A stretch of 64,000 nt of DNA, from positions 4,956 to 68,955 of the forward strand of contig JABMQJ010000016.1 of the NCBI GenBank assembly GCA_013203315.1. Direction: 5' to 3'. Within the stretch, counting starts at the first letter, position 1, and every line of letters begins with the position of its first letter. Position numbers and translations under genes: made by a program. The notes under the pieces were generated by a model that ran no database searches, was not told the origin of the DNA, and worked only from the letters and a program-made list of their open reading frames with translations. The DNA comes from Candidatus Omnitrophota bacterium. Lineage in GTDB: Bacteria > Omnitrophota > Gorgyraeia > JABMRN01 > RBG-13-46-9. Below, piece after piece: positions 6,817 to 63,776 of this stretch.

Positions 6817-6830
6817 CCCAATCTTTCAAG

Positions 6831-7622: not shown

Positions 7623-8106
7623 TAGATTTGCCTTATACGCTTCGCTTGTGATGCTTTTGTTTATGGAACTTGCGGTATTTAGCAAGCTGAGAATTTTTGG
7701 CGTAAGACCCGAACTACTACTCGTTGCAACGGTATTTTTCGGATTCCATTTCGGAATAGCCCGCGGCATGGAGGTGGGCATGATTTCAGGGATTCTGAAA
7801 GATTTATTCAGCATGACCACTTTTGGCGTTAACGCATTTTCATTTTTACTTGTAGGGTTCTTAGCGGGCTTTCTTAAAGATAAATTATTCAAAGAGGATG
7901 TTATAACCCAATTCTTCCTTTCATGTGCCTCCGTCTATCTTATTTCCGGTATTTATTTTTTGTATCTGGATAAAATCATGGGTAACAATTTGAGCACCGT
8001 TTTCTGGAAACAGGGTGGCGTTAAGGCACTATACACGGGCTGCGTGGCACTGGTTTTATTTTTTACCCTTACGAAGATTTTCGGTTTTCCGAAAAAACAA
8101 AATTAG
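7612..8106 (+). CDS. mreD: Rod shape-determining protein MreD
   Basis: 164-aa polytopic membrane protein overlapping mreC by 11 nt, immediately upstream of PBP2. Confidence 0.7.
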   Translation: MQNNRFALYASLVMLLFMELAVFSKLRIFGVRPELLLVATVFFGFHFGIARGMEVGMISGILKDLFSMTTFGVNAFSFLLVGFLAGFLKDKLFKEDVITQFFLSCASVYLISGIYFLYLDKIMGNNLSTVFWKQGGVKALYTGCVALVLFFTLTKIFGFPKKQN

Positions 8107-9828: not shown

Positions 9829-10905
9829 ATGCATTTTAAAAATTTTGATAGAACGTTATTTTTTGCCACACTGGCGATTCTTCTCATAGGCCTTTTGACG
9901 CTTTATAGTGCTTCAAGAGAGTACCATTCTCAGGATATTGTTTTTCGCCAGGTATTCTGGATAATTTTTGGCATTGTGGTTTTATTCGCAATCTTGCGCG
10001 TGGATTATCAAAGGATTGCGAGCTTGTCTTACATATTTTACGGCGCAACACTACTTTTTCTTGTTATGGTTTTATTCTCCGGAAGAGCGAAGGGCGGCGC
10101 GCATCGCTGGATAAGCCTGGGCTTTTTCAACCTTCAACCCTCGGAGCTTGCAAAAATAACACTTATCTTGGCGCTTTCTTCATACGCAAGCGTTAGAAGA
10201 AGCGATGTTACCAAAATAAGTTTTTTTTGCAAAGCATTTCTGCTCGCTATCCCCGCATTTCTCCTAATTCTCATAGAACCCGATCTTGGCACGGCACTTT
10301 TGCTTATACCGGTAACGCTTGCAATGCTTTACATGGCCGGTGTGAATGTTATGCATATTTTGGGCGTTATGCTTCTAGGCCTGGCGTCTTTTCCTGTTTT
10401 TTGGCATTTTCTGAAAGGGTACCAGCGGCAGAGGCTATTTGTTTTTATAAACCCTAATATTGACCCGCTCGGTTCGGGCTATACAATAATACAATCGAAG
10501 ATCGCAGTCGGTTCAGGAGGGATCTTCGGTAAGGGATGGCTTGCGGGAACGCAGAATCAACTAAATTTTCTGCCGGAACGCCATACGGACTTTATTTTTT
10601 CGGTGGTAGGCGAGGAGTGGGGTTTCGTAGGCGCGCTTGTCCTTATACTATTGTATGCATTGATCGTGTACAGGGGGATAAAAATTATCGAAACTACTCC
10701 CGACACATGCGGAAAATTAATTGCTACGGGCCTTGTAACGCTTTTCACCCTTCAGGTCCTGATTAACATCGGCATGACCATTGGTTTTTTGCCTGTAGTC
10801 GGACTTACCCTACCGCTTATAAGCTACGGAGGCTCAAGCCTCATAACAACGCTTCTGTGTATCGGCCTATTGCTTAATATTGGTATGAGAAGGCCTCTAT
10901 TCTAA
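9829..10905 (+). CDS. rodA: SEDS-family peptidoglycan polymerase RodA
   Basis: FtsW/RodA/SpoVE family 10-TM topology, conserved 'PELGT'-like 'EPDLGTALL' and 'FLPERHTDFIFSVVGEEWGFVGAL' motifs; co-located with mrdA. Confidence 0.85.
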   Translation: MHFKNFDRTLFFATLAILLIGLLTLYSASREYHSQDIVFRQVFWIIFGIVVLFAILRVDYQRIASLSYIFYGATLLFLVMVLFSGRAKGGAHRWISLGFFNLQPSELAKITLILALSSYASVRRSDVTKISFFCKAFLLAIPAFLLILIEPDLGTALLLIPVTLAMLYMAGVNVMHILGVMLLGLASFPVFWHFLKGYQRQRLFVFINPNIDPLGSGYTIIQSKIAVGSGGIFGKGWLAGTQNQLNFLPERHTDFIFSVVGEEWGFVGALVLILLYALIVYRGIKIIETTPDTCGKLIATGLVTLFTLQVLINIGMTIGFLPVVGLTLPLISYGGSSLITTLLCIGLLLNIGMRRPLF

Positions 10906-11003: not shown

Positions 11004-12089
11004 ATGGCGATAGATATCAAAAGTTTGCTGAAGATTATGTTGGAAAAAAATGCTTCGGACTTTCATGTCACCGCAAACACACCCATTCATTTGAGGATTG
11101 ACGAAAACTTGCATGCGCTGAACAAAGAAATATTGAGCCCACAAGACACAAAAGCAAGTGTGTACGCTATCCTAAATGACGATCAGATAAAGCAGTTCGA
11201 GAAAGACCTGGAGCTCGATTTTTCTTTTGAACTAAAAGATATTGCCAGGTTCAGGGTAAATATTTTTTACCAGAGGGGCGCTGTAGGTTGTGCGATAAGA
11301 CTCATACCTTATGAAATAATGAATTTTGAGCAGTGCGGGTTGCCTGTAAAAACGACAACCAAACTTTGCAAAGTGCCAAAAGGCCTTGTGCTGATTACAG
11401 GAGCGACGGGAAGCGGCAAGTCCACCACTCTGGCGTCTATGGTGGATTATATTAATAGCAATCGGCCTTGTCATATAATAACGATAGAGGATCCTATTGA
11501 ATTTGTGCACAAAAATAGGAAAGCTATTGTGGACCAGCGTGAAGTATATAAAGACACCCATTCATTCGGTGCCTCCTTGAAGCGCGTCTTGAGGCAGGAC
11601 CCTGACGTCATACTAATCGGAGAAATGCGAGACCTGGAAACGATTGAAAGCGCCTTGATAATCGCCGAAACAGGGCACCTGGTTCTTGCTACCCTTCACA
11701 CTTCTGATGCCGTGCAGACAATAAACAGGATAATAGACGTTTTTCCCGCGCACCAGCAACAGCAGATAAGAACACAGCTTTCATTTGTTCTTTCCGGGGT
11801 CCTCTCCCAGCAACTTATTCCGAAAGCAGGGAAGTCCGGCAGGGCCCTTGCTACCGAAGTTTTAATAGCAACACCTGCAATAAGAAGCTTGATTCGCGAG
11901 GGCAAGGTTCACCAGATATATTCAGTTATTCAAACTACGCAAAAAGAGGGCATGAAAACGATGAATCAGGCGTTAGCAGATCTTTGCGAAAGCGGTGCGG
12001 TATCGCTTGAAGCGTGCCAGGAAAAATCCACAAATATTGACGAGCTTTACAAATTAATTAAAAGTCCGGTAAAAGGAAAGGCGAGTTGA
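11004..12089 (+). CDS. pilT: Type IV pilus retraction ATPase PilT
   Basis: PilT-type N-terminus 'MAIDIKSLLKIMLEKNASDFHVTANTPIHLRID', Walker A 'GATGSGKSTT', Asp box/Walker B 'VILIGEMRD', His box 'GHLVLATLHT'; ~360 aa with no N-terminal MshEN domain. Confidence 0.85.
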   Translation: MAIDIKSLLKIMLEKNASDFHVTANTPIHLRIDENLHALNKEILSPQDTKASVYAILNDDQIKQFEKDLELDFSFELKDIARFRVNIFYQRGAVGCAIRLIPYEIMNFEQCGLPVKTTTKLCKVPKGLVLITGATGSGKSTTLASMVDYINSNRPCHIITIEDPIEFVHKNRKAIVDQREVYKDTHSFGASLKRVLRQDPDVILIGEMRDLETIESALIIAETGHLVLATLHTSDAVQTINRIIDVFPAHQQQQIRTQLSFVLSGVLSQQLIPKAGKSGRALATEVLIATPAIRSLIREGKVHQIYSVIQTTQKEGMKTMNQALADLCESGAVSLEACQEKSTNIDELYKLIKSPVKGKAS

Positions 12090-12092
12090 AAA

Positions 12093-12566
12093 ATGCTTCC
12101 GTTTAAACGTCTTGTAAAAAAACAACTGGGAGAATTACTGATAGAGCGCGGCGTTATTACCCGCTCGCAACTTGAAAAAGCACTCCAGATTCAAAAAGAA
12201 AAAGGCGGGCTCCTGGGCCAGATACTTGTTGTGTTGGGTTTCACAAAAGAAGAAGAAATAGCCCAGGCCCTCACCATTCAGTATGGTTTCCCATATCTGC
12301 CATTACAGAATTATGAATTAAACAAGGAAGTTGTCAAGCTCATACCCGAAAGCGTGTCAAGACAGTATTGCTTGATAGCGGTAGACAAGATAGGCGATAC
12401 GCTTACGGTGGCGATATCTAATCCGCTGAACACGAAAGCCATTGAGGATGTGGAGCTCCTTACTAAATGCAAGGTACAGGTTTTTGTGAGTACGCTGACG
12501 GATGTCGGTAAAGTCATCGAAAAGATATATGGAAAAGATAAAAAGCCGAAGGAGGCCGAGGGCTAA
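12093..12566 (+). CDS. Standalone MshEN / T2SSE_N-domain protein (putative c-di-GMP receptor)
   Basis: Two tandem 24-aa MshEN-type motifs separated by a 5-aa spacer: 'QLGELLIERGVITRSQLEKALQIQ'-'KEKGG'-'LLGQILVVLGFTKEEEIAQALTIQ', followed by a second GspE_N-like fold ('LIAVDKIGDTLTVAISNPLN'). No ATPase domain. Confidence 0.7.
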   Translation: MLPFKRLVKKQLGELLIERGVITRSQLEKALQIQKEKGGLLGQILVVLGFTKEEEIAQALTIQYGFPYLPLQNYELNKEVVKLIPESVSRQYCLIAVDKIGDTLTVAISNPLNTKAIEDVELLTKCKVQVFVSTLTDVGKVIEKIYGKDKKPKEAEG

Positions 12567-12574
12567 AACCAAAA

Positions 12575-14314
12575 ATGGCAGGCGACGCCTTATCCATAAG
12601 AGATCGGGTAATGAAAAGCCTCTGCGAGAAGAAACTTCTCGTTGAAAACGATATACGCAAGGCCCTTGAAATACAAAAAGAAAAAGGAGGCAAACTAAGC
12701 GATATATTGGTCGGGATGGGTATCGTGTCAAGAGGCGATCTTGTTTCGGCCATGAGCAAGGAACTCGGAATCCCGCCTATCGACCTTTCGCGTTATCAGG
12801 TTTCCCCGGAAGTAATAAAGCTTGTCTCTAAAAAAGTTGCCAGAAACTACCGCGTTGTACCCATTTCGAAGATGGGAAATTTCCTCACGATAGCCATAGC
12901 CGATCCGCTTAACGTATTTACCACAGACGACATAGCTTCTTTTACGGGTTGCAAAATCAGCGTTGTCATAGCAAGCGATAAAGATATTACTGAAGCGATT
13001 TCGCAATACTACGAAGCAGCGGCGCCGGAAGCCATAGAGCAAATTATAGATGAGATGTCACCGCAGGCAGGTGGCATAGAGCTACTCTCAGATACGGAGG
13101 ATACTCTATCCTCCGCGCAACTTGTGAAAATGATTCAAGAGGCACCCGTTGTCAAGGTTGCGAATATGATACTTGCAGAAGGGGTAAGGGCCAGGGCGAG
13201 CGATATCCTGATTGAACCACAGGAAGCCTCACTACGAATAAGATATAGAGTAGATGGTGTGTTGCACGAGGTCAAAGCCCCGCCGAAAAGAATTCACCCT
13301 GCGCTTATTTCAAGATTAAAAGTTATATCAAATTTAAATATTGCGGAGCGCCGGCTACCGCAGGACGGCCGTTTTAAAATAAAGATACAAGGCCGGGAAG
13401 TAGATTTTAGAATTTCTGTTTTACCATCAAGTAACGGCGAAAAAATTGCACTTCGGATACTGGATAAGTTGCAGGCTACGTTAGACCTTGCCAAGCTAGG
13501 GTTCGATGAAGGATCTTTGGAGAATATAAAGAAAGCCGCTATGAGGCCTCACGGAATGATCCTTGCTTGCGGGCCTACCGGTTGCGGTAAGACGACGACG
13601 CTTTATTCCATACTGAATTATGTGGATTCACCGGAAAAAAATGTAATTACCGCAGAAGACCCGGTAGAATATCAGTTGGAGGGCATAAATCAGCTAACCG
13701 TCAAACCGGATCTAAATCTTACGTTTGCCAGCAGTCTACGCTCATTCCTTAGGCAAGATCCGGATGTTATAATGGTCGGTGAAATAAGGGATTTTGAAAC
13801 CGTGGACATAGCGATTAAAGCGGCCTTAACAGGCCACCTTGTTCTTAGTACATTGCACACCACGACAGCGTCAGGATCAATAGTGCGCTTGGTTAACATG
13901 GGCGTGGAGCCTTTCCTTATTACCTCGAGCCTTGTTTTGGTTTCATCGCAGAGGCTGATACGTAGAATTTGTGAAACCTGCAAAGAATCGTACAAGATTG
14001 ACGAAGAAACCGCGAAGAAAATACAGCTAAAGTCCGGCGAAAAAAATATCGCATACAGGGGAAAAGGATGCAAGGCTTGCCAGAACACGGGTTACAGGGG
14101 AAGGGAGGCCCTCATAGAAACTTTGGTGCTAACCCCAGAAATTCGAAGGTTAATACTTGAAAAAGCAGAAGAAAATAAAATACGCCGGGAAGCGCGCAGG
14201 GCAGGCATGAAAACATTAAGGGAAAACGGAATAAAAAAGATTATAAGCGGTATTACAACTATAGAAGATATTTTGCGCGTAACAGTAGGAGACCAGGACG
14301 TTCCGGTAAAGTAA
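12575..14314 (+). CDS. pilB: Type IV pilus assembly ATPase PilB/GspE family (paralog 1)
   Basis: N-terminal MshEN-like region (spacer 'KEKGG'), GspE_N domain ('FLTIAIADPLN'), Walker A 'GPTGCGKTTT', 'VIMVGEIRD', 'GHLVLSTLHT', tetracysteine Zn motif 'CETCK...CKACQNTGYRGR'. Confidence 0.85.
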   Translation: MAGDALSIRDRVMKSLCEKKLLVENDIRKALEIQKEKGGKLSDILVGMGIVSRGDLVSAMSKELGIPPIDLSRYQVSPEVIKLVSKKVARNYRVVPISKMGNFLTIAIADPLNVFTTDDIASFTGCKISVVIASDKDITEAISQYYEAAAPEAIEQIIDEMSPQAGGIELLSDTEDTLSSAQLVKMIQEAPVVKVANMILAEGVRARASDILIEPQEASLRIRYRVDGVLHEVKAPPKRIHPALISRLKVISNLNIAERRLPQDGRFKIKIQGREVDFRISVLPSSNGEKIALRILDKLQATLDLAKLGFDEGSLENIKKAAMRPHGMILACGPTGCGKTTTLYSILNYVDSPEKNVITAEDPVEYQLEGINQLTVKPDLNLTFASSLRSFLRQDPDVIMVGEIRDFETVDIAIKAALTGHLVLSTLHTTTASGSIVRLVNMGVEPFLITSSLVLVSSQRLIRRICETCKESYKIDEETAKKIQLKSGEKNIAYRGKGCKACQNTGYRGREALIETLVLTPEIRRLILEKAEENKIRREARRAGMKTLRENGIKKIISGITTIEDILRVTVGDQDVPVK

Positions 14315-14317
14315 AAA

Positions 14318-16042
14318 ATGAAACAAAAAACACTTTCAGACAGGCTGCTCGATATTCTCCAACAAAAAAATCTTATAAATGCGGACCAGGCCAAGAAGGT
14401 TCTGAATATCCGCAAAAAAGAAGGGGGGAGCCTGGGAAAGATTCTGACAGGCGAAAACATTATAACGCATAAGGATTTAATGGTTCTTTTGAGTGAGCAA
14501 TTAGACATTCCTCCCATTGACCTCTCAAAATATAAGATTGATCCGAACATCGCGAAGCTCGTGCCGGAGAAGCTCGCAATGCAACATAACCTTATTCCCG
14601 TATCGAAAATAGCGAATACCATTACCGTTGCCATGGCAGATCCGACCGATATCCTGGCAATAGATGATATGAAAACCGCCCTACCCCCGGACGTGAGTAA
14701 TATCGATATTATTATTGCCACTCATAGTGACATCAAAGAGGCTCATGCGAAAATTTTCGGATCGCCTACAGAAGACATTCTAAAAATAGCGGTTGATGCT
14801 GATGTTGAAACAGTGGAGATTGTTGAGGAAGAAAAACTGGACATAGGCGAAATTACAGTCGAAAGTAAAAAAGCCCCGATTGTTAAAATAGTTTCGCTAA
14901 TATTAAACGAAGCCCTAAAGCGCAGGGCCAGTGACATACATATTGAGCCAACAGAAAAAGATGTAAGAGTACGGTACAGGATTGACGGTGCCCTGCGGGA
15001 AGCGCTACGACTGCCTAAAAAGAATCAGAACGCTATCGTGGCAAGGCTTAAAATAATGTCGAAGCTGGATATTACCGAAAACAGGGTCCCGCAGGACGGC
15101 CGTTTTAAAATAAAATCCGGGGCCAAAGGCATAGATTTTCGCGTAAGTATTTTACCCATAGCTTTCGGAAACAAGGTTGTTTTAAGAGCGCTCGACAAGT
15201 CGAATCTGGACATAGGGTTGGATAAATTGGGATTTTTACCGGGCCCCCTGGAAGCATTTAAAAAAGCACTGGAAAGGCCTTTTGGAATGATTCTTTTGAC
15301 CGGACCGACAGGAAGTGGAAAGTCTACAACCCTATACTCCATAATTAATAAGCTAAACACTCCCGCGAGAAACATTATAACGATAGAAGACCCTGTTGAA
15401 TATGAACTGGAAGGCATAACGCAAATTCAGGCAAACCCCGAGATAGGCCTTACCTTTGCAAACGGCCTTAAGTCCGTTCTCCGACAGAGTCCTGACATAG
15501 TCATGGTAGGGGAGATAAGGGATTTTGAAACAGCTGACATTGCGATTAAGGCATCTCTCACAGGGCAACTTGTCCTTAGCACCTTGCACACAAATGATGC
15601 AGTAGGAGCCATTACGAGATTGGTAGACATGGGCGTTGAGCCATTCCTTGTGTCTGCCAGCCTTGTTCTTACTGCCGCGCAAAGACTGCAAAGGAGCATA
15701 TGCCCGCGATGCAAGGAAGCAATTGACGTTCCTCGCTCTGTGCTTGAGCGGGTCGCTGGAACTAAAGATGTGGAGAAACTCATAAAAAGAAAGCCATTTT
15801 ATAGCGGAAAAGGATGTCCGCGTTGCAATAATACCGGTTATCTTGGAAGGGCAGGCGTTCTGGAGACGCTAACGATTGACGACGCGATAAGAGACATGAT
15901 TATAAGGAGGGCCTCAACGGAGGAAATAAGTAAGTACGCTATTTCTAAGGGAATGATGACTTTAAGGGATAGCGCACTGGAAAATTTTGCTGCCGGGCTA
16001 ACCACTATGGAAGAGGTTCTAAGAATTACTACGGAGGATTAA
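14318..16042 (+). CDS. Type IV pilus assembly ATPase PilB/GspE family (paralog 2)
   Basis: Same architecture as the upstream gene: MshEN-like N-terminus ('RLLDILQQKNLINADQAKKVLNIR'-'KKEGG'-...), Walker A 'GPTGSGKSTT', 'IVMVGEIRD', 'GQLVLSTLHT', tetracysteine 'CPRCKEA...CPRCNNTGYLGR'. Confidence 0.8.
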   Translation: MKQKTLSDRLLDILQQKNLINADQAKKVLNIRKKEGGSLGKILTGENIITHKDLMVLLSEQLDIPPIDLSKYKIDPNIAKLVPEKLAMQHNLIPVSKIANTITVAMADPTDILAIDDMKTALPPDVSNIDIIIATHSDIKEAHAKIFGSPTEDILKIAVDADVETVEIVEEEKLDIGEITVESKKAPIVKIVSLILNEALKRRASDIHIEPTEKDVRVRYRIDGALREALRLPKKNQNAIVARLKIMSKLDITENRVPQDGRFKIKSGAKGIDFRVSILPIAFGNKVVLRALDKSNLDIGLDKLGFLPGPLEAFKKALERPFGMILLTGPTGSGKSTTLYSIINKLNTPARNIITIEDPVEYELEGITQIQANPEIGLTFANGLKSVLRQSPDIVMVGEIRDFETADIAIKASLTGQLVLSTLHTNDAVGAITRLVDMGVEPFLVSASLVLTAAQRLQRSICPRCKEAIDVPRSVLERVAGTKDVEKLIKRKPFYSGKGCPRCNNTGYLGRAGVLETLTIDDAIRDMIIRRASTEEISKYAISKGMMTLRDSALENFAAGLTTMEEVLRITTED

Positions 16043-16046
16043 ACTA

Positions 16047-17264
16047 ATGGCTAGATTTAAATACGTAGTCAAAGACAAAGACGGTAAAACTGTAAAGGGA
16101 ACCGTTGAAGCCCAGGCAAAGGAAGGCGCGGTTCTTTCTTTGAGAGAGAAAGACTTGATTATAGTCTCCCTTCAGGAAGAGAAAGGGGGAGCGCGATCTT
16201 TGGGGCTATTTTTTCCTAAAAGGCAGAAGGTAAAAATAGACGACCTTGTCATATTTTCCCGGCAGCTGGCCACGATGGTTGATGCGGGCATACCCCTTGT
16301 TAGCGCGCTGGATATTCTGGCAGAACAGATTGAAAAACCGTCCCTCAAATACGTTATCTCGAAAGTCCACGATGACGTAGAGACTGGTTCAAGCCTGTCA
16401 GAGGCCCTATCTAAATATACAAATATTTTTTCAAATCTTTTTGTCAACATGGTTCGCGCCGGCGAATCAAGCGGTATGTTGGACGAAATCCTTGACAGGC
16501 TCGCTACATACCTTGAAAAAACAAGTAGCCTCCAGAAGAAGGTAAAGTCCGCTCTTGTTTATCCGGCGGCTGTAACAACTATGGCCATAGGCATAACCGT
16601 ATTTTTGCTGGTCAAGGTAATCCCGGTTTTTAAGGACATATATTCGGGTTTCGGGGCCCAGTTGCCTACGCCCACCATGGTAATACTTAGCATAAGTGAC
16701 TTTTTACGAAATTATTTTTATATCGCGATCGCTGCTATCATTATTTTCTTTCTTCTCATAAGCAGGTATATTAAGACTGATAGGGGCAAAACAAGATTTG
16801 ACCGCTTAAAGCTCAACATACCAATATTCGGTACCCTGGCAAAAAAGGTGGCAGTCGGCAAGTTTGCAAGAACCCTTTCCACGCTAATAAAGAGCGGGGT
16901 TCCGATATTGAGCTCACTTGAAATCGTGAGTAAAACCTCCGGTAACTGCGTTATAGAGAAGGCTGTAGACAACGTCAGGACAAATGTGCGCGAAGGAGAA
17001 GCTATCGCTGACCCCCTCTCAAAAAGTGGGATATTCCCGTCTATGGTTGTGCGCATGATTTCAGTCGGCGAACAGACTGGGGAACTTGAGAAGATGCTGA
17101 CAAAAATAGCGGACTTTTATGATGAGCAGGTAGACACGGCTGTAAGCGGCCTTACAAGCCTTATCGAGCCCCTCATAATAGCCTTTTTAGGCATTGTGAT
17201 AGGGGGCATAGTGATATGTATGTTCCTTCCCATATTGCAGATATCGTCGGTACTGAACGTATAA
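16047..17264 (+). CDS. pilC: Type IV pilus inner-membrane platform protein PilC (GspF family)
   Basis: 405 aa, duplicated GspF domains each with a TM pair ('LATMVDAGIPLVSALDIL', 'LSTLIKSGVPILSSLEIV'); follows the PilB genes. Confidence 0.85.
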   Translation: MARFKYVVKDKDGKTVKGTVEAQAKEGAVLSLREKDLIIVSLQEEKGGARSLGLFFPKRQKVKIDDLVIFSRQLATMVDAGIPLVSALDILAEQIEKPSLKYVISKVHDDVETGSSLSEALSKYTNIFSNLFVNMVRAGESSGMLDEILDRLATYLEKTSSLQKKVKSALVYPAAVTTMAIGITVFLLVKVIPVFKDIYSGFGAQLPTPTMVILSISDFLRNYFYIAIAAIIIFFLLISRYIKTDRGKTRFDRLKLNIPIFGTLAKKVAVGKFARTLSTLIKSGVPILSSLEIVSKTSGNCVIEKAVDNVRTNVREGEAIADPLSKSGIFPSMVVRMISVGEQTGELEKMLTKIADFYDEQVDTAVSGLTSLIEPLIIAFLGIVIGGIVICMFLPILQISSVLNV

Positions 17265-17265
17265 G

Positions 17266-17287
17266 AGCCCCTGGCACCCCTGGGGCT
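17266..17287 (+). terminator. Short GC hairpin after pilC (possible weak terminator/attenuator)
   Basis: AGCCCC(17266-17271)-10 nt loop-GGGGCT(17282-17287) followed by 'atctt'; weak T-tract. Confidence 0.3.
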
Positions 17288-17290
17288 ATC

Positions 17291-17319
17291 TTGACTTTTA
17301 GCCACTTGTGTGATATAAT
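17291..17319 (+). promoter_or_regulatory. Strong sigma70 promoter with extended -10 upstream of the major pilin gene
   Basis: TTGACT 17291-17296, 17-nt spacer, TGaTATAAT (TG at -15/-14, TATAAT 17314-17319); followed by RBS 'ggaaggaaggaagg' and the pilin ATG at 17360. Confidence 0.5.
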
Positions 17320-17359
17320 AACGTTGTCCCTACATGGGAAGGAAGGAAGGTGAAAAAAC

Positions 17360-17695
17360 ATGAAAAAGCTAAAGAAAAAAGGGTTTACGCTCGTCGAAAT
17401 CATGATCGTTGTTGCAATTATAGGTCTATTGGCGGCTATAGCCATTCCTAACTTTGTAAGGGCTAGGACAACGGCGCAAACCAATTCCTGCATAGCTAAC
17501 TTAAAGCAGCTCGAAGGGGCTGTCCAGGTCTGGGCTATAGAAACAGGTGCGGGTGATACCGATGCCTCGGTGCTATCCGATTTAACACCGTACGTCAGAC
17601 GTTGGCCCTCATGCGGAACAAGCGCATATGCGGCGCCAACCAGTGCATCTCAAACACCTACGTGTCCACTCGCCAACACTGACCACGTGCTCTAA
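17360..17695 (+). CDS. pilA: Type IV major pilin (PilA-like prepilin)
   Basis: Class III signal 'MKKLKKKG|FTLVEIMIVVAIIGLLAAIAIPNF' (G-1, E+5), ~111 aa, C-terminal Cys pair (C..C) for the D-region disulfide, Ser/Thr-rich tail 'AAPTSASQTPT'. Confidence 0.8.
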   Translation: MKKLKKKGFTLVEIMIVVAIIGLLAAIAIPNFVRARTTAQTNSCIANLKQLEGAVQVWAIETGAGDTDASVLSDLTPYVRRWPSCGTSAYAAPTSASQTPTCPLANTDHVL

Positions 17696-17728
17696 GGGCA
17701 AGAGCATTTTGAAGGCGTAAGCCTGAAT

Positions 17729-17761
17729 AGGGGGTGATGAATTCATCACCCCCTATTTTTA
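17729..17761 (+). terminator. Rho-independent terminator after the pilin gene
   Basis: Perfect 12-bp inverted repeat GGGGGTGATGAA/TTCATCACCCCC (17730-17753) followed by 'tattttta'. Confidence 0.6.
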
Positions 17762-17775
17762 TATCTTTAATATTT

Positions 17776-26874: not shown

Positions 26875-29034
26875 ATGAAAAGAAAAAAGCATTATAAAAG
26901 CGGCGTGACGCTGATCGAGCTTATGATGTCGGTTCTCCTGGGCACCATTTTGCTAGGCATTGTCTTAGGCGCATGGTATTTTACCTATAGAAACTGGGCG
27001 CTTGATAGAATAAGGACAAAGAACAGGGTTGAGCTTCAAATCGCCGTGGAACGGATCAAGAGCGAGCTCAGGCTTTCAAGCACTACATACCTAAGCCTTC
27101 ACCCCGCAGGTGAAACCGAATACACTGCCATAAGTTTTCCGATGGCAGATTCTGACGCGAACGGCTTTTTTAGCTTAGACGGCGATGGGCACATCGACTG
27201 GGATAAGAGCGTCATATACCACGTTTATGATAATTCGTCGACAGGATTCACGGAGCTTAGGAAAACAGAGTTTACCAGCAACCACGACGTATTAGTTGTC
27301 GATGCCCAAAGAGAGACACAGCTTGCCAATGCCGTGGCAAACGGAGACGGTTCGAGTGGACCCAACTCAGCTAATGCAACTACTGAAACTATAGTCGAAA
27401 AACTCACAAGTTTTATCATAAACCCGCAGGCGCAGGAATTTGACGGGTACAGCCCTACTGCCAAAAAAAGCGACAACGTGACGTTCGGTAGCGTCAGGCT
27501 TACATCGGGAAATCATGATTTCAGGTTCGAGGTAACCGGGAAAAATACCAATAATACCGATCCGTCGGGATATAAATTTGGCATAGACACGCTTTCTATT
27601 TCACCGAGTGGCTGCAAGCAGGAAATGGAGGTTTACACGCCTCAAGCATCAAGTGGGGATACTAGCGCAAAGATCGGCCCCAATTTACTCTGGAGCGGAA
27701 ATAATTTTCAGCGATACAGTGCTGACGCAGTCGGCGACTATGCCACCTTTAGGCTATATTACGACAGCTGGCTTGAATCCAATTTTGATAATTCTGTAAG
27801 AGAGAATACGATTTTGACAGGTGACGATCTATCCGTGCAATTACCGGATCTCGATTCGGGAGAAGAAGTTACGTGGACCGCAGATGTTGAAGCGGGTAGT
27901 GTAAACGGCGATGCGGTAAAAGCGGATTTTCCTTTGACACTCGCCGGAATAACTATAAGAAATGTTATTTCCTCCGTCAACATCGATTCAGGCGGAAATG
28001 CATTTAGAGTCCAGTTTGACTCGCATTCTACTTCTCCCCTGACAATTGATGCCGCTTATATTGACGAAAGGGATTCCGGCGAAAATTGCGTGAATCCTCC
28101 GGTAACCACAACCCCCGGTGAAACAAGGATACAACTTTATTTTACCGACGCTTTGGATAATATTCTGCCGGGAATAACAATTCCCGCCGGTGAGAGCGCA
28201 TATTCGAATTGGGCAATTTTTCCGATTGATTCTTCAAAAAATTACTTTGTGACCTTCTCTGTATCAGGGGCCTCATTTGCAAGCCACTGGGCCGGGACCG
28301 AGCCAACTGAAACAAATTCATATTTGATGGGTGGCGATTATGCTGCACAGGCTGTGTGGTCTGATGTGACCCATTATCTCGTACATGAGTCTTTACCTCC
28401 CTTCGCCGACGAAAGGTACACTTCATCCGCGAATATTTACGCGCAGGCTTCGCTTGAGGTTTGGTCACAAAGCGGTAGTGTTACAACGCAGATTTATGAT
28501 ACAAAAATAGCGAACCCAGTTTATAGGCCAATGAATTATTCGAGCTTTGGATCTGTTTCGGTCTACGGTCGTTCAAGTGATGATTCCCTTATGAGCGGGG
28601 CATCGGCGTGGACTGCCGGATCTGTGACCGGCACAGGAAGATATGCGCAGGCCAAAGCAGATCTTTCTGTAATACCGTATTGGACATGCATCGATCATTC
28701 GGCGGCTATAAATGTCCCAGATTCAAGCTATAAAAATTCCGGCATGATAACCTGCTCAGGGGCGGGATGTGGAAAGTTTCTTATTCCGACTCAGGGCGTT
28801 AATGCGCCCTGGGTCGATAATATTTTAGTCACCTGGCCGGGAGAGACAACGATGTGCGACATAAGCGGTTATTTTGCGCAAGATTCAGACTACGGAATTA
28901 TAAAACTTCTTGTAGATGGAAATGAGCTGATAAAGGGTATGGAGTTTAATGTAACGGTTTACGAAGATTTTCAAGGTGCGGTCTATACAACAAGCCAACA
29001 AACTGAGGTCGAACCGAGGAATACCGGAAAATGA
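26875..29034 (+). CDS. Giant (719 aa) minor pilin / pseudopilin, Ser/Thr/Gly/Asp-rich, probable pilus-tip adhesin
   Basis: 'HYKSG|VTLIELMMSVLLGTILLGIVL' (G-1, E+5) prepilin N-terminus followed by ~680 aa of beta-rich, S/T/G/N/D-rich sequence; 4-nt overlap (ATGA) with the next gene. Confidence 0.6.
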   Translation: MKRKKHYKSGVTLIELMMSVLLGTILLGIVLGAWYFTYRNWALDRIRTKNRVELQIAVERIKSELRLSSTTYLSLHPAGETEYTAISFPMADSDANGFFSLDGDGHIDWDKSVIYHVYDNSSTGFTELRKTEFTSNHDVLVVDAQRETQLANAVANGDGSSGPNSANATTETIVEKLTSFIINPQAQEFDGYSPTAKKSDNVTFGSVRLTSGNHDFRFEVTGKNTNNTDPSGYKFGIDTLSISPSGCKQEMEVYTPQASSGDTSAKIGPNLLWSGNNFQRYSADAVGDYATFRLYYDSWLESNFDNSVRENTILTGDDLSVQLPDLDSGEEVTWTADVEAGSVNGDAVKADFPLTLAGITIRNVISSVNIDSGGNAFRVQFDSHSTSPLTIDAAYIDERDSGENCVNPPVTTTPGETRIQLYFTDALDNILPGITIPAGESAYSNWAIFPIDSSKNYFVTFSVSGASFASHWAGTEPTETNSYLMGGDYAAQAVWSDVTHYLVHESLPPFADERYTSSANIYAQASLEVWSQSGSVTTQIYDTKIANPVYRPMNYSSFGSVSVYGRSSDDSLMSGASAWTAGSVTGTGRYAQAKADLSVIPYWTCIDHSAAINVPDSSYKNSGMITCSGAGCGKFLIPTQGVNAPWVDNILVTWPGETTMCDISGYFAQDSDYGIIKLLVDGNELIKGMEFNVTVYEDFQGAVYTTSQQTEVEPRNTGK

Positions 29035-30191
29035 TTAAAAATAAAAAAGGCGCAATATTCATAACCGTTATGGTTATTTCCATGCTTATGATTTTGGTGG
29101 GTGTAAGCGCCTCAAACATGTTAATGCAGGATGTCCACATGGTCAAGTACTTGAAAAAATCCACGACGGCGCAGTATATTGCCGAAGCGGGTATAAACGA
29201 CGGCCTGGCGACACTAGTGCAAAACGGTTTTGCGGCCAAGGATACGGATTTTCCTTTAATTGATAATACTTTTGGCGGGGGAGGCTATAATGTTACTGTG
29301 AGCGAAGTAGGCGGCAGGGTGCTTCTAACATCGGTCGGCACTTTTGAGAGTATTTCGCGAACAGTTGCGGCGGAAGTAAAGGATAATACTGCTACGGCAC
29401 TTTTGTATATGATGGCATCCGGCACTGACTTAAGACTCAGGGCATTTTTTCTGGGTCTTGCGGATATCAATGGTGATCTTCATGCAAATAACGATTTGAG
29501 GTTAAAAGCACAGGCGCTTGCGCTTATTGACATAGACCCTTGTGGCGCCACATGTTGCGATGGAAACATCTCGGCCTGTAACAGGATTTTCCAAGCAACC
29601 GGATTTTTAGGTTTTATAAATGTTGCAGGAAGCACAACCGAAGGCATTACCGTTGCGCCGGTATCGTTTCCCCAGTTTGACTACGCCTATTATGTAGTCC
29701 AAGCAGTAGCCAGCGGTGATTACTATAATGGAGATACCGACTTCGGTTCAGTTGGCACTACGACCGACCTCACCCCAGGAAACGGTATAGTATACGTTAA
29801 CGGTACCGCCAATTTATTTGGAACTGTAAATCTAAACGGAGGGATCGTTGCGGATAAGATCAATGTCCGCGGCCGGTTAAACCAGATAAAAACAGGTAGT
29901 AAAAATGTTATTATCGCAAAAGGAAGCGATACCGGAGGCACCGAAGGCGACATAAGCATATTTTTTCGGTTGGATGTCGAAGAGGCCGTTGTTTTTGCTG
30001 CGCGCGACTTCAAGGTAGTCGCGGCTTTTTCGACTGTTGTAGTTACGGGTTCTCTTTTGGGCAGGAGAAACATAAGAATCTGGGATTTGCTAAGCAGTAT
30101 CACCTATAACCACAAACTTTTAAGTCCTACCGGAATACTTGGCCCAAATGGCGAAACCGAGCCATTCACAGTAGTTAGCTGGAATAAGTAA
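29031..30191 (+). CDS. PilX-like pilus assembly protein (PilX_N domain)
   Basis: N-terminus 'KGAIFITVMVISMLMILVGVSASNMLMQD...AQYIAEAGINDGLA' matches the PilX N-terminal domain; Gly/Thr-rich beta-repeat body. Confidence 0.55.
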   Translation: MIKNKKGAIFITVMVISMLMILVGVSASNMLMQDVHMVKYLKKSTTAQYIAEAGINDGLATLVQNGFAAKDTDFPLIDNTFGGGGYNVTVSEVGGRVLLTSVGTFESISRTVAAEVKDNTATALLYMMASGTDLRLRAFFLGLADINGDLHANNDLRLKAQALALIDIDPCGATCCDGNISACNRIFQATGFLGFINVAGSTTEGITVAPVSFPQFDYAYYVVQAVASGDYYNGDTDFGSVGTTTDLTPGNGIVYVNGTANLFGTVNLNGGIVADKINVRGRLNQIKTGSKNVIIAKGSDTGGTEGDISIFFRLDVEEAVVFAARDFKVVAAFSTVVVTGSLLGRRNIRIWDLLSSITYNHKLLSPTGILGPNGETEPFTVVSWNK

Positions 30192-48524: not shown

Positions 48525-49061
48525 ATGGCTCTTAGAAGGAAGCATGAGGTTCCGAAGGAAAAAGTTCTGGAGGTGGATGCAAGCATGCAAGGCACGCTTA
48601 CATTCAAAGACCCGGTAAACTTAAGGATTAACGGTAAGTTTGAAGGAAAGCTCCTCACGAAAGGCAGTCTTACAGTCGGCGAACACGCCGTTGTAAACGC
48701 TGATATTACCGGCGATGTTATAACTGTTGCCGGTAGGGTTAATGGCGACATCAAGGCCTCTGTGGAGTTGAACCTGATAGCGCCCGCGTTCGTTGTGGGG
48801 GATATAAAGGCTCCTGCTCTTCGCATCGCACAGGGTGCTATTATCGAAGGTTATTGTAACATGATTTCAGACAGGAAGGGCGGAGAACCCGCTTCTGACA
48901 TGCTTACGATTGACCAGGTTGCCAAGTTTTTGGAAGTTGACACGAACGTAATTACCGAGTGGGCTGATACCGGTAAGCTCCCGGCCGTCAAGGACGGTTC
49001 CAGATGGAGTTTTGAAAGATCTAAAATTGAGGAATGGCTCACAAGCGAAAAAATAAAGTAA
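48525..49061 (+). CDS. Bactofilin-domain protein fused to a C-terminal excisionase-family (HTH_17-like) helix-turn-helix domain
   Basis: Bactofilin beta-helix repeats 'GSLTVGEHAVVNADITGDVITVAGRVNGDIKASVELNLIAPAFVVGDIKAPALRIAQGAIIEG'. C-terminal 'LTIDQVAKFLEVDTNVITEWADTGKLPAVKDGSRWSFERSKIEEWL' matches the excisionase-type DNA-binding HTH (TIGR01764-like) pattern. Confidence 0.7.
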   Translation: MALRRKHEVPKEKVLEVDASMQGTLTFKDPVNLRINGKFEGKLLTKGSLTVGEHAVVNADITGDVITVAGRVNGDIKASVELNLIAPAFVVGDIKAPALRIAQGAIIEGYCNMISDRKGGEPASDMLTIDQVAKFLEVDTNVITEWADTGKLPAVKDGSRWSFERSKIEEWLTSEKIK

Positions 49062-49087
49062 ACCAGAAATAGTAACTTAATTAAATT

Positions 49088-49435
49088 ATGCCCGATAAAC
49101 TCTTTACGATAGAGGAGGCGGCTATCCTGCTCGGGGTGCCGGAAGACCGCATTAAAAAGCTTGTCAGTAACGGCAGCTTGCCGGCTTATAAGATTGGCGG
49201 TCGATTTCTTCGGTTCAGGAGGGAGCAAATAGAAGCTATTAGGTATGAGATTCATGATAAGTTTGGCGCCAAGGTGGTGGAGCGGGCCTCAAGGGACTAT
49301 CTCCAAAAAACCAAAGGCGTAGTATACCCGCAGTCGCTTCTCGATAGAATTTTGGATTTCTTTTATTTCAACGACTTTTATGTTGTTGCTGCCGCGCTGG
49401 CATGCTTGATTTTGTTGTTCATATTTAAGGGATAG
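49088..49435 (+). CDS. Tail-anchored membrane protein with N-terminal excisionase-family HTH domain
   Basis: N-terminus 'LFTIEEAAILLGVPEDRIKKLVSNGSLPAYKIGGRFLRFRREQIEAI' (HTH_17-like), C-terminal TM 'FYVVAAALACLILLFIF'. Paralogous HTH to the upstream bactofilin fusion. Confidence 0.55.
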   Translation: MPDKLFTIEEAAILLGVPEDRIKKLVSNGSLPAYKIGGRFLRFRREQIEAIRYEIHDKFGAKVVERASRDYLQKTKGVVYPQSLLDRILDFFYFNDFYVVAAALACLILLFIFKG

Positions 49436-50386
49436 ATGCTTAAGGTAACCTTTCTACGATTATTCCCCTTATGTTTTTTTATTTGCGCCATGACTGCTTT
49501 CGCCGACACGGTCTATCTGGAAAACGGCGAGAAAATGAAAGGCGTAATAGTAGAAGAATACCACGATAGGGTCGTTATCTCGACCCATGAAGGCGAAAAA
49601 AGTATTCTTAAAAAAGACATCCACACCATCTCCTACGATCTGGTTGAGCAAAACCTTGTGGTCCTTGGTGATTCGTATGCCGACCGCAATAAACATGGAG
49701 AAGCCTACTTTTATTATAAAAAAGCCGTCAAAATAAATCCGAAATATAAAATTGCGCGTGACAAAATGAACTTTACGGCAGGGCAGGCGTTCCGTCAATC
49801 ACAAAAAGAGAAGCGGGACGCTGTGAAGCGAAGGCAGGAGATCGAGGATTCATCGAGGCCCTTGCCTTACGAAGAAAAAGATTTTAAAAAAGAGCTTGAA
49901 CAAAAAATCGGTATAATCATCGCTGAAGAAGGCGATAGCGTAAAGATAATAAATGTTACCGATGACAGCGCGGCGGACGACGCCGGCTTACGGCCCGGCG
50001 ATACGCTAATTTCTGCCTGGGGCCGCTTTACCGATTACATGTCAAAAGAAAATGTAAGCCGCCTTTTACTGGAAAGTCTGGGCGAGATTAAAATAGATAT
50101 CCAGCGGGACGTCGTCTTAAAAAAAGAAAGCCCGGCTGCGATATTTTATAAAGATATTATAGGCGGAAAATTGGATATGCTAAGAGACGGCCTGACCATC
50201 GTGGATTTAAAAGAAGGGTCCCCCGGACAAGAGGCGGGCCTCAGTAAAGACGATTTGATCATTGCCATAAACGGCGCCTCGACTCGTTATATGCCGCTTT
50301 CGGATGCAATTAAGATAATTGAAAACAAAAAAACGGGCGCGATAAAATTTACCGTAAGAAGGGACGCGACTATATGGAGGAAGTAG
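49436..50386 (+). CDS. Secreted protein with TPR-like N-terminal region and two PDZ domains (no protease domain)
   Basis: Signal peptide 'MLKVTFLRLFPLCFFICAMTAFA', then PDZ1 'VKIINVTDDSAADDAGLRPGDTLISAWG' and PDZ2 'LTIVDLKEGSPGQEAGLSKDDLIIAINGA'. Confidence 0.65.
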   Translation: MLKVTFLRLFPLCFFICAMTAFADTVYLENGEKMKGVIVEEYHDRVVISTHEGEKSILKKDIHTISYDLVEQNLVVLGDSYADRNKHGEAYFYYKKAVKINPKYKIARDKMNFTAGQAFRQSQKEKRDAVKRRQEIEDSSRPLPYEEKDFKKELEQKIGIIIAEEGDSVKIINVTDDSAADDAGLRPGDTLISAWGRFTDYMSKENVSRLLLESLGEIKIDIQRDVVLKKESPAAIFYKDIIGGKLDMLRDGLTIVDLKEGSPGQEAGLSKDDLIIAINGASTRYMPLSDAIKIIENKKTGAIKFTVRRDATIWRK

Positions 50387-50388
50387 GA

Positions 50389-50826
50389 ATGGAAAAGAGG
50401 CTCTACAAGAGAACCCGATACATTGTCAAAGCAAAATTCCAGATGAAATATGTTGGCTTACTTCTTTTAGTTGCGCTTGCAAGCGCAACTATTTCCGGAT
50501 ATACGATATATTATAACTCATGGGTTCTTTTAGGGGAAAAACTCGCAAACGTCTACCCGCAGGGAAGACTCATGGAGATTTTTAAATCCGTAAACATTAA
50601 ACTGGCCGTTAGTATGGTTTTTGTTTCAATGATTTGCATAGGGATAGGGATTTTGGCATCACACAAGATCGCGGGCCCCGTTCACAGGATGGTAATGTTT
50701 CTAGACAGCTTAACGGCTGGCGATTACAGTAAGCGTCTGTTCTTAAGGAAGAAAGATGAATTGAAGGACCTGGCAGAGGCCATAAACAGGCTGACAGTCG
50801 AACTGGATAAGAAAAAAAAGGCTTGA
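50389..50826 (+). CDS. Membrane protein with two TM helices and a HAMP domain only (no output domain)
   Basis: TM1 'VGLLLLVALASATISGYTIYY', TM2 'LAVSMVFVSMICIGIGILA', HAMP 'IAGPVHRMVMFLDSLTAGDYSKRLFLRKKDELKDLAEAINRLTVEL'. Start at the ATG 50389 (RBS 'ggaggaag', after the PDZ gene stop) rather than the track's 50374. Confidence 0.6.
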   Translation: MEKRLYKRTRYIVKAKFQMKYVGLLLLVALASATISGYTIYYNSWVLLGEKLANVYPQGRLMEIFKSVNIKLAVSMVFVSMICIGIGILASHKIAGPVHRMVMFLDSLTAGDYSKRLFLRKKDELKDLAEAINRLTVELDKKKKA

Positions 50827-50851
50827 CAGTATCAATGGGATGTGTTATTTT
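50823..50851 (+). promoter_or_regulatory. Putative extended -10 promoter upstream of polA (TTGACA-17-TGtTATTTT)
   Basis: TTGACA 50823-50828, 17-nt spacer, TG at -15/-14 then TATTTT 50846-50851. Confidence 0.4.
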
Positions 50852-50952
50852 GTTTCACGATCACTTAGCTACTAAGTTCTTTCAGCTAAAGCAGTTACAA
50901 AAGGCCCAACCTAGTTTGTAATAATCGAAAATCAAATCTGATGTATTAATCC

Positions 50953-63684: not shown

Positions 63685-63758
63685 GGCGGGGTAGCTCAGT
63701 TGGTTAGAGCAGTCGGCTCATACCCGGCATGTCGAGAGTTCGAGTCTCTCCCCCGCTA
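63685..63758 (+). tRNA. tRNA with CAU anticodon (elongator Met or lysidine-modified Ile2; not initiator-like)
   Basis: Cloverleaf read by eye: acceptor GGCGGGG/CCCCGCT, D-arm 'TAGCTCAGTTGGTTAGAGC', anticodon stem GTCGG/CCGGC with loop 'CTCATAC' (anticodon CAT), T-arm GAGAG-TTCGAGT-CTCTC, discriminator A; no encoded CCA. Lacks the three consecutive G-C pairs of initiator tRNAs. Confidence 0.8.
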
Positions 63759-63776
63759 CTACTCGAAAAGCCCAAC

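Follow-up and report, generated by a model that had tools for sequence, protein, structure and literature searches.

The window analysed here, a stretch of 64,000 nucleotides on contig JABMQJ010000016.1 of a Candidatus Omnitrophota bacterium, carries downstream of ctpA and tsaD four consecutive genes, g1 to g4, that an earlier note made from the sequence alone had described as a single operon. It had read them as a bactofilin fused to an excisionase-type helix-turn-helix (HTH) domain, a membrane-anchored protein with an HTH of the same type, a periplasmic protein with two PDZ domains and a HAMP-only membrane protein. Profile searches (Pfam/NCBIfam) and structure prediction (AlphaFold2 followed by Foldseek) bear out these domain calls for all four proteins, and the open reading frames (ORFs) had been placed exactly:

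48525-49061, + strand: g1, 178 amino acids (aa), fusion of a bactofilin and a helix-turn-helix of the winged type (wHTH), core member of a conserved pair
49088-49435, + strand: g2, 115 aa, tail-anchored wHTH protein, obligate neighbour of g1
49436-50386, + strand: g3, 316 aa, exported protein with a Lepto_7_Nterm-like region, a TPR and two PDZ domains, in a separate conserved pair with g4
50389-50826, + strand: g4, 145 aa, HAMP-only membrane protein with two transmembrane segments, partner of g3

The first two genes are the main subject of this report. Judged from their profiles and predicted structures, they encode a bactofilin scaffold to which a Xis/BldC-type module is fused, and a membrane partner dedicated to it.

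A bactofilin with a folded C-terminal winged helix

The g1 product matches the Pfam family Bactofilin (PF04519, DUF583) at residues 14-111 with 81.1 bits over 97 of the 98 profile positions (cut-off 27.9, E = 7e-23) and HTH_17 (PF12728) at residues 126-174 with 44.5 bits against 27 (E = 2e-11). It also scores 37.2 bits, against a cut-off of 28.8, with the TIGR01764 model ("excise"). An AlphaFold2 model calculated from an alignment of 56 sequences, with a mean predicted local distance difference test score (pLDDT) of 80, resolves the protein into four parts:

48525-48563, + strand: disordered N-terminal tail, residues 1-13, with acidic residues after a basic cluster (residues 1-11 at pLDDT below 50)
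48564-48863, + strand: bactofilin beta-helix core, residues 14-113, pLDDT about 88-94
48864-48899, + strand: flexible linker, residues 114-125, low pLDDT at 119-122
48900-49058, + strand: C-terminal winged helix, residues 126-178, acidic, with the order beta-alpha-alpha-beta-beta-alpha (126-173 in the model)

When compared with the Protein Data Bank (PDB) by Foldseek, the core matches Caulobacter crescentus BacA (2n3d; TM-score 0.85, root-mean-square deviation [rmsd] 1.7 Å) and Thermus thermophilus TtBac (6rib; TM-score 0.78). The C-terminal domain is predicted to fold as a winged helix: its matches include BldC (6ama/6amk; TM-score 0.74-0.81, rmsd 1.3-1.6 Å), Pukovnik Xis (4j2n), RdfS (8dgl) and the DNA-binding domain of RacA (5i44). 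Profiles, AlphaFold2 and Foldseek thus agree that g1 is a bactofilin beta-helix fused to an excisionase-type wHTH.

Besides the beta-helix core, g1 has in common with the canonical bactofilins BacA and TtBac a hydrophobic polymerisation residue. Ile107 aligns to TtBac F105 and BacA F130, and the position is hydrophobic in all 56 sequences (Leu in 42, Met in 5, Phe in 5 and Ile in 4); g1 probably polymerises through this core. The two ends of the protein are less canonical. Bactofilins of the known kind have short disordered tails and an N-terminal membrane-targeting sequence with the consensus MFSKKKK (PMC12448750), whereas g1 has a folded C-terminal domain and a tail that resembles such a sequence only in part. 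The N-terminal tails of the g1 family are 13-15 aa long; Arg/Lys residues cluster at positions 2-6, and acidic residues come next. In part of the family (MALRRR, MAFKKK) position 2/3 is hydrophobic as in the targeting sequence, and many members (MRRRRE) have no such residue there. The incomplete match makes an alternative membrane anchor plausible. The linker between core and wHTH measures 10-15 residues throughout the family, except in a clade of shorter forms of 167-168 aa (loci L010-L013), where it is absent, and the C-terminal end, W(L/V)xx(E/G)KIK, is strongly conserved.

A partner with a second winged helix and a tail anchor

The g2 product matches HTH_17 (PF12728) at residues 5-50 (42.4 bits against 27, E = 8e-11) and TIGR01764 (45.4 bits against 28.8), and it has a single hydrophobic segment, at residues 91-115. 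In the AlphaFold2 model (pLDDT 77), residues 5-59 form a wHTH; from there a linker of low confidence leads to a helix at 84-94, and after a kink comes a transmembrane helix at 96-114. Profiles, predicted structure and hydrophobicity therefore concur on an N-terminal excisionase-type HTH and a C-terminal transmembrane tail anchor, as had been proposed, and add a motif next to the membrane:

49100-49264, + strand: N-terminal winged helix, residues 5-59, with a basic wing (K35, invariant R42, R44)
49355-49381, + strand: juxtamembrane motif D-F-x-Y-F-x-D-F-Y, residues 90-98, recognised by its conservation in 39 sequences
49373-49426, + strand: C-terminal transmembrane tail anchor, residues about 96-113, a predicted helix with pLDDT about 90

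Across the 39 sequences, D90, F91, Y93 and D96 of the motif are invariant and F94, F97 and Y98 are kept in at least 90%, a level of conservation that equals that of the HTH itself. The motif is joined to the wHTH by a variable and mostly basic linker of 15-33 residues and is directly followed by the transmembrane segment of ~17 residues, beyond which only 1-3 residues remain; a hydrophobic maximum of 2.5-3.2 lies at the C terminus in 15 of 15 g2 orthologues. The wHTH itself resembles BldC, Pukovnik Xis and RacA in the PDB (TM-score 0.65-0.84). That the HTH of g2 is a paralogue of that of g1, as the earlier note had it, holds as far as the domain type is concerned (39% identity over 44 residues); paralogy is plausible, although the best PDB sequence matches differ, being BldC for the g1 HTH and Pukovnik Xis for the g2 HTH.

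Two conserved gene pairs

Comparison of gene neighbourhoods shows that the locus consists of two independently conserved pairs, g1-g2 and g3-g4, which are adjacent in this sub-clade. In the relatives whose g1 is 66-91% identical to that of the window (L001-L008), the order gatA-gatB-ctpA-tsaD-g1-g2-g3-g4-polA-coaE-rho is kept. In deeper lineages (L009-L014, L021 and L023; g1 47-60% identical), the order is instead tsaD-MgtC-g1-g2-LarB. The link between g1 and g2 is strict: in each of the 17 loci examined in relatives, where g1 identity falls as low as 47%, g2 is the next gene downstream of g1, with gaps of -16 to 313 bp, and when the search is started from g2, three of the four most divergent homologues checked adjoin a gene with both Bactofilin and HTH_17 domains (the exception, P0166, is taken up below).

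The second pair behaves differently. The genes g3 and g4 are adjacent in L001-L009 and L023, and in L022 and L024 they are adjacent in the absence of g1-g2. In L009 and L023 they lie beyond larB-larC, beside polA, and in L010-L014 they were not detected downstream of g1-g2. When g3 is the starting point, the homologues that diverge most (31-34% identity) prove to be arranged as lnt-g3-g4 with no bactofilin in the vicinity, and the gene after g3 is a clear g4 homologue there (47-48% identity); over L022-L024, g4 is 44-48% identical where g3 is 31-41% identical. The lnt-g3-g4 loci without a bactofilin, the larB-larC split and the failure to detect g3-g4 downstream of g1-g2 in L010-L014 together divide the locus in two, and the proposal that the four genes form one functional unit, with the PDZ and HAMP proteins as the periplasmic or transmembrane side of a g1-g2 complex, does not survive this comparison.

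For the same reasons we regard it as very unlikely that the four genes encode a single envelope machine in which g1-g2 would act in the cytoplasm and g3-g4 in the periplasm and membrane, perhaps with CtpA, to position cell-wall remodelling. Such a machine would account for the order ctpA-tsaD-g1-g2-g3-g4-polA in L001-L008, would agree with the common role of bactofilins in positioning cell-wall enzymes (PMC12448750), and could draw on the resemblance of the g3 PDZ domains to that of CtpA. The independent occurrence of g3-g4 speaks against it, and unrelated housekeeping genes (gatAB, tsaD, polA, coaE and rho) share the same conserved order, so that synteny here reflects low rearrangement rather than common function.

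The description of g3 as a signal peptide, a TPR-like region and two PDZ domains without a protease domain is borne out. A signal-like hydrophobic segment at residues 1-28 overlaps a Lepto_7_Nterm-like domain at 12-67 that scores just under the cut-off (42.6 against 43); a single TPR at 74-104 is sub-threshold, and two PDZ stretches follow. No S41 or S1 peptidase domain is recognised in g3, the protease models scoring far under their cut-offs (TIGR00225, for example, 54.7 against 218.6). Likewise, g4 proves to be a protein of two transmembrane segments (residues 17-41 and 64-96) and a HAMP domain (residues 96-144 of a 150-aa form), the latter barely over the cut-off at 27.2 bits against 25; it ends about 5 residues past the HAMP domain and has no kinase, MCP, GGDEF or PP2C output domain. 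Neither g3 nor g4 has a PADLOC match.

Other neighbours differ between lineages. An MgtC-family membrane protein is encoded between tsaD and g1 in L009, L010-L013, L021 and L023, and in these same loci larB (AIRC), sometimes with larC, comes after g2; the sub-clade of the window has neither MgtC upstream of g1 nor larB/larC after g2. The distant g3-g4 pairs of L022 and L024 directly follow lnt, which encodes apolipoprotein N-acyltransferase, and in L024 the gene after the pair encodes a small protein that weakly matches zf-HC2 (anti-sigma-like); these neighbours hint at an envelope or lipoprotein context for the PDZ/HAMP-only pair.

Spread of the fusion

The g1 sequence is identical (100%) to a protein from a Candidatus Omnitrophica metagenome-assembled genome (MAG), and a homology search (E ≤ 1e-3) returned 1182 clusters at 90% identity. 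Domains and lengths were checked in the best 120 of these 1182. Both Pfam domains are present in 120 of 120, the length is 169-182 aa in 118 of 120 (the exceptions being 158 and 196 aa), and all named sources are Omnitrophica/Omnitrophota. An artefact of assembly or gene fusion was rejected, since these best 120 of 1182 homologues come from independent assemblies and all carry both domains. In an exhaustive HMMER search of 1.84 billion representatives at 50% identity, 41 matches were obtained at E ≤ 1e-30; about 25 of them are full-length fusions, after which the matches turn to ordinary bactofilins, which marks the fusion as one compact family. The pair is widespread in Omnitrophota. The fusions come, as far as their sources are named, from Omnitrophota and from a few MAGs labelled "uncultured Planctomycetia/Planctomycetales".

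Database labels for these proteins are only "polymer-forming cytoskeletal protein" or "excisionase family DNA binding protein". A full-text literature search on bactofilins with HTH, excisionase, domain architecture or Omnitrophota/Omnitrophica turned up no description of the architecture, in line with the previous statement that no described system matches.

Two further observations concern related proteins. The MAG that contains L003 also encodes a conventional bactofilin (L015, 2-300), which shares 55% identity with the g1 core and has a short basic tail at its end in place of an HTH; bactofilins with and without an HTH might conceivably form mixed polymers. The profile search also found proteins made of tandem HTH_17 domains, seven in P0211 (417 aa) and three in P0234 (231 aa).

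Charge of the two winged helices

To judge the capacity for DNA binding, the residues by which BldC contacts DNA (PMC5859096) were mapped onto the g1 family (56 sequences) and the g2 family. At the position of BldC Arg30, 50 of the 56 g1 proteins have Glu and 3 have Asp; at that of Lys33 they have Asp or Asn, and at that of Arg22 an invariant Glu. Glu137 is invariant in g1. The recognition helix (helix 2) of g1 has a mean net charge of -1.84 and is never positive, compared with +2 in BldC, the wing carries +0.36 compared with +4, and the isoelectric point of the wHTH domain is about 5 in most members. The tandem HTH_17 arrays of P0234 and P0211 have Lys, Arg, Asn, Ser or Ile at the Arg30 position and never an acidic residue. 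The acidic recognition helix and the Glu or Asp at the Arg30 position make it unlikely that g1 reads DNA unaided as BldC or RacA do, and the suggestion that the fusion ties a filament to DNA is weakened for g1 by the Glu at the position of the very Arg with which BldC and RacA read bases. A possible likeness of the "VKDG" wing of g1 to lambda Xis was dropped as a lead, as BLASTP gave no alignment with the lambda sequence.

The wing of g2, in contrast, has a mean charge of +3.38, with R42 invariant in addition to K35 and R44, and g2 may contact DNA through this wing and the basic linker.

A proposed docking of bactofilin filaments on a membrane-bound winged helix

The reading that we favour, with a probability of roughly 0.4, is that filaments of g1 are held on membrane-anchored g2 by pairing of the winged helices of the two proteins, and that g2 may in turn hold DNA. 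The polymerised beta-helices of g1 would display many C-terminal Xis/BldC-type winged helices on short flexible linkers, and g2 would be inserted in the cytoplasmic membrane by its tail anchor, with the second winged helix facing the cytoplasm. The acidic g1 wHTH would serve as a docking module rather than as a stand-alone DNA reader, pairing with the basic-winged wHTH of g2, with its basic linker, or with both, and so fixing the filament to the membrane; avidity along the polymer would make up for weak single contacts. The wing and linker of g2 could additionally hold DNA, in which case the complex may tether or organise the nucleoid at the membrane; alternatively, g1 may compete with DNA for g2, in a switch like that of BacR. 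On this reading g3-g4 would be a separate envelope module that merely lies beside g1-g2 in this sub-clade.

Several features of the pair argue for docking: the bactofilin core with its conserved hydrophobic polymerisation residue, the strict linkage of g2 to g1, the only partial likeness of the g1 N-terminal tail to a membrane-targeting sequence, the charge complementarity between the acidic helix 2 of g1 and the basic wing and linker of g2, the invariant juxtamembrane motif with its tail anchor, and the fold of both HTHs, which is that of BldC, Xis, RdfS and RacA, all cooperative oligomeric DNA binders or anchors. There are also precedents for the individual contacts. CbpM has a MerR-like wHTH that serves protein-protein binding, and the CbpM-CbpA complex (3ucs), which is among the Foldseek matches of both wHTH domains, shows that a wHTH can be a protein-docking domain. 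In PbpC, docking on BacA is mediated by a short and conserved peptide on the cytoplasmic side, close to the transmembrane helix (PMC12448750), a precedent for a bactofilin client contact next to such a helix, and a third is the recruitment of BacR to the membrane by bactofilins, described below.

A number of observations weigh against the docking reading. First, g1 keeps W146 (BldC W31) and the basic residues K151, K156 and K/R162, and retention of the Trp and of basic wing residues leaves room for DNA binding by g1. Second, the recognition helix of g2 is not consistently basic (its charge ranges from -4 to +4, with residues that are not conserved), and this makes it less likely that g2 binds DNA sequence-specifically. 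Third, the head-to-tail contacts of BldC need DNA and are weak without it (PMC5859096); when the BldC interface is mapped on g1 and g2, the hydrophobic positions are conserved and the salt bridge is not, the R22-E16' pair becoming Glu-Glu when a g1 head meets a g2 tail, so that a BldC-like g1-g2 interface is not obviously favoured. Finally, the most divergent g2-like protein, P0166 (L017, 6001-6306; 37% identity), has a degenerate motif, DFLYSYDYF, and its gene, flanked by those for Thi4 and NUDIX close to a cluster for hydrogenase maturation, adjoins no bactofilin gene, which suggests that the tail-anchored wHTH architecture may also exist alone.

The residues retained in g1 bear on a different arrangement, in which the g1 winged helices would bind DNA directly, arrayed as a nucleoprotein filament like those of Xis, BldC and RdfS or in the manner of RacA, and g2 would be a second, membrane-bound DNA anchor, so that DNA itself bridges filament and membrane. 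The fold family is overwhelmingly DNA-binding, BldC-type domains act as cooperative multimers (PMC5859096), the covalent HTH_17 arrays of P0234 and P0211 show that arraying is a recurrent theme, and Myxococcus bactofilins organise ParABS (PMC5703909). The acidic recognition helix of g1, the replacement of both Arg30 and Lys33, the low wing charge and the low isoelectric point nevertheless make this arrangement doubtful, the more so as the tandem arrays, unlike g1, are never acidic at the Arg30 position.

A regulatory role has also been considered, in which g2, g1 or both would be transcription regulators sequestered at the membrane (g2) or on the polymer (g1), tuning the bactofilin locus or envelope genes to the state of the envelope. 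The model for this is BacR (YhbD, DUF4004) of Bacillus subtilis, an HTH protein that is co-transcribed with the bactofilins BacE and BacF and binds them, and that is recruited by them to the membrane, loses its DNA binding and relocates on cell-wall stress (PMC13649987). DNA binding and bactofilin binding are mutually exclusive in BacR. The likeness extends to an HTH protein encoded alongside a bactofilin, the wing of g2 is of the canonical excisionase type, and the neighbours ctpA, g3 and g4 encode envelope proteins. BacR is, however, a soluble dimeric DUF4004 protein, whereas of the two HTHs of this pair one is joined covalently to the bactofilin and the other belongs to an integral tail-anchored protein, and Pfam finds no DUF4004 match in g1-g4. 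Moreover, a tail anchor with 1-3 external residues offers neither a sensing domain nor an obvious release mechanism, no site-2 protease or integrase is encoded nearby, the 13 and 26 bp upstream of g1 and g2 leave little room for an operator, and the recognition-helix residues of g2 vary, unlike those expected of a regulator with a fixed operator. We therefore hold a regulatory switch to be distinctly unlikely.

Setting of the locus in the window

The gaps of 26, 0 and 2 bp given before for g1/g2/g3/g4 are correct, and g1 starts 13 bp after the end of tsaD, with a Shine-Dalgarno-like GGGGG 7-11 nt upstream. For g4, the ATG at 50389 is preceded by the Shine-Dalgarno sequence GGAGGAAG, which the overlapping alternative ATG at 50374 lacks, and 50389 is preferred as the start for that reason. 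A single transcription unit had been claimed from this spacing; almost all genes of the 64-kb window are, however, on the + strand and densely spaced, which makes spacing and co-orientation weak evidence for one operon. A scan for promoters and terminators gave counts no different from those in shuffled sequences and taught nothing about operon limits. Within 50823-50952 of the window, one promoter-like match (TTGACA-17-TATTTT with an upstream TG) runs from the last bases of g4 (50823) into the g4-polA spacer, which at 126 bp is the widest gap of the gatA-rho stretch; polA thus probably has its own promoter.

GC content at the locus is 0.45, compared with 0.41-0.46 across the window, and GC skew is positive throughout (1-64000); the window lies within a single replichore, with no origin or terminus. 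Rfam and tRNA scans gave no match in or near the g1-g4 locus, the only RNA gene of the window being a tRNA-Met at 63685-63759, and tblastn of the window found no second bactofilin and no further HTH_17 genes.

These surroundings bear on the possibility that the HTH_17 genes are remnants of a mobile or defence element, that is, excisionases or parts akin to MAD1 of the MADS system, with an incidental fusion. The best NCBIfam and PADLOC matches of both HTHs do include MAD1 and "excise". The MAD1 model (NF047737 / PDLC04133) scores only 39.9 and 37.9 against a cut-off of 80, PADLOC matches nothing but the HTH, no integrase and no other MADS gene lies nearby, housekeeping synteny is conserved across the phylum and GC content is normal. 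A prophage, excisionase or MADS reading is so improbable on these grounds that we rejected it; a role as recombination directionality factor likewise finds no integrase in the locus, whose flanks are housekeeping genes.

Elsewhere, the window holds an elongasome cluster (5737-10905) made up of mreB (5737-6816), mreC (6831-7622), an mreD-like ORF (7612-8106), the gene for PBP2 (8107-9828) and rodA (9829-10905), and this complete mreB-rodA cluster means that the genome encodes MreB-directed wall synthesis besides the bactofilin. A cluster resembling those for type IV pili and type II secretion systems (about 11004-30191; secretin at 23295-24905) includes a stand-alone MshEN protein of 157 aa (12093-12566) followed by tandem MshEN+T2SSE ATPases (12575-14314 and 14318-16042); it is unusual for a free MshEN domain to stand next to PilB-like ATPases that are duplicated. 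An ORF of 719 aa in the same cluster (26875-29034) has a hydrophobic segment at its N terminus like that of pilins, matches nothing in Pfam at E ≤ 1e-5, and is flanked by smaller pseudopilin-like ORFs (26448-26870 and 29031-30191).

Discussion

Bactofilins are regarded as bare scaffolds, with short disordered tails by which clients are recruited, and the pair g1-g2 invites comparison with several systems in which a scaffold meets DNA. The analogy with PadC and ParB drawn in the earlier note is a fair one at the level of function. In Myxococcus xanthus, the BacNOP bactofilin scaffold links PadC, ParA and ParB-parS (PMC5703909), so that there, as in our reading of g1, a bactofilin polymer is a platform connecting to DNA-associated proteins. 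The Myxococcus link is, however, made of separate proteins (PadC with its ParB-like domain, ParA and ParB-parS), whereas the wHTH of g1 is covalently fused and looks poorly suited to reading DNA. No ParB-like or PadC match was obtained in g1-g4 with Pfam/NCBIfam, and none was noticed among the ORFs of the window.

BldC, Pukovnik Xis and RdfS (6ama, 6amk, 4j2n and 8dgl) have the same minimal wHTH fold (TM-score 0.65-0.84, rmsd 1.2-2.8) and act as cooperative head-to-tail or filamentous oligomers, an arrangement that a bactofilin polymer would mimic by arraying its winged helices. They are, on the other hand, free-standing basic DNA binders of about 55-70 aa, in contrast to the acidic g1 domain with its Glu at the Arg30 position. 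With the BldC family model NF033787, g1 scores 23.8 bits against a cut-off of 77 and g2 gives no match, and neither is free-standing as BldC is (about 68 aa). RacA of B. subtilis, whose DNA-binding domain (5i44) is a fold match of both the g1 and the g2 wHTH, combines a MerR-like wHTH with a self-associating domain and anchors DNA to a membrane-associated scaffold; it works through a coiled coil and DivIVA and not through a bactofilin or a tail-anchored partner. RacA also keeps the base-reading Arg (PMC5859096).

For annotation, the division into two modules avoids the misleading label of a "four-gene system". The Omnitrophota are uncultured and often ultra-small, and to our knowledge their cell biology is essentially unknown; the small size of the g1 and g2 products (178 + 115 aa) makes the pair an easy target for expression, imaging and binding work. 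A further-reaching version of the docking reading, in which the bactofilin winged helices would co-assemble with the tail-anchored wHTH protein on DNA into a new linker between cytoskeleton, nucleoid and membrane, is possible but on present evidence unlikely. If true, it would mean that a chromosome can be anchored or segregated at the membrane without an adaptor of the PadC/ParB or RacA/DivIVA type, and no earlier bactofilin would be known to have a domain of its own for binding nucleic acid or a partner, nor any earlier Xis/BldC fold to act as a cytoskeletal coupling module. More generally, a folded wHTH on a bactofilin together with a dedicated membrane partner, found phylum-wide, would reveal a new means by which a bacterial cytoskeletal polymer is coupled to the membrane, and possibly to the chromosome as well, and the pair would show the excisionase/BldC fold repurposed from DNA reading towards protein docking.

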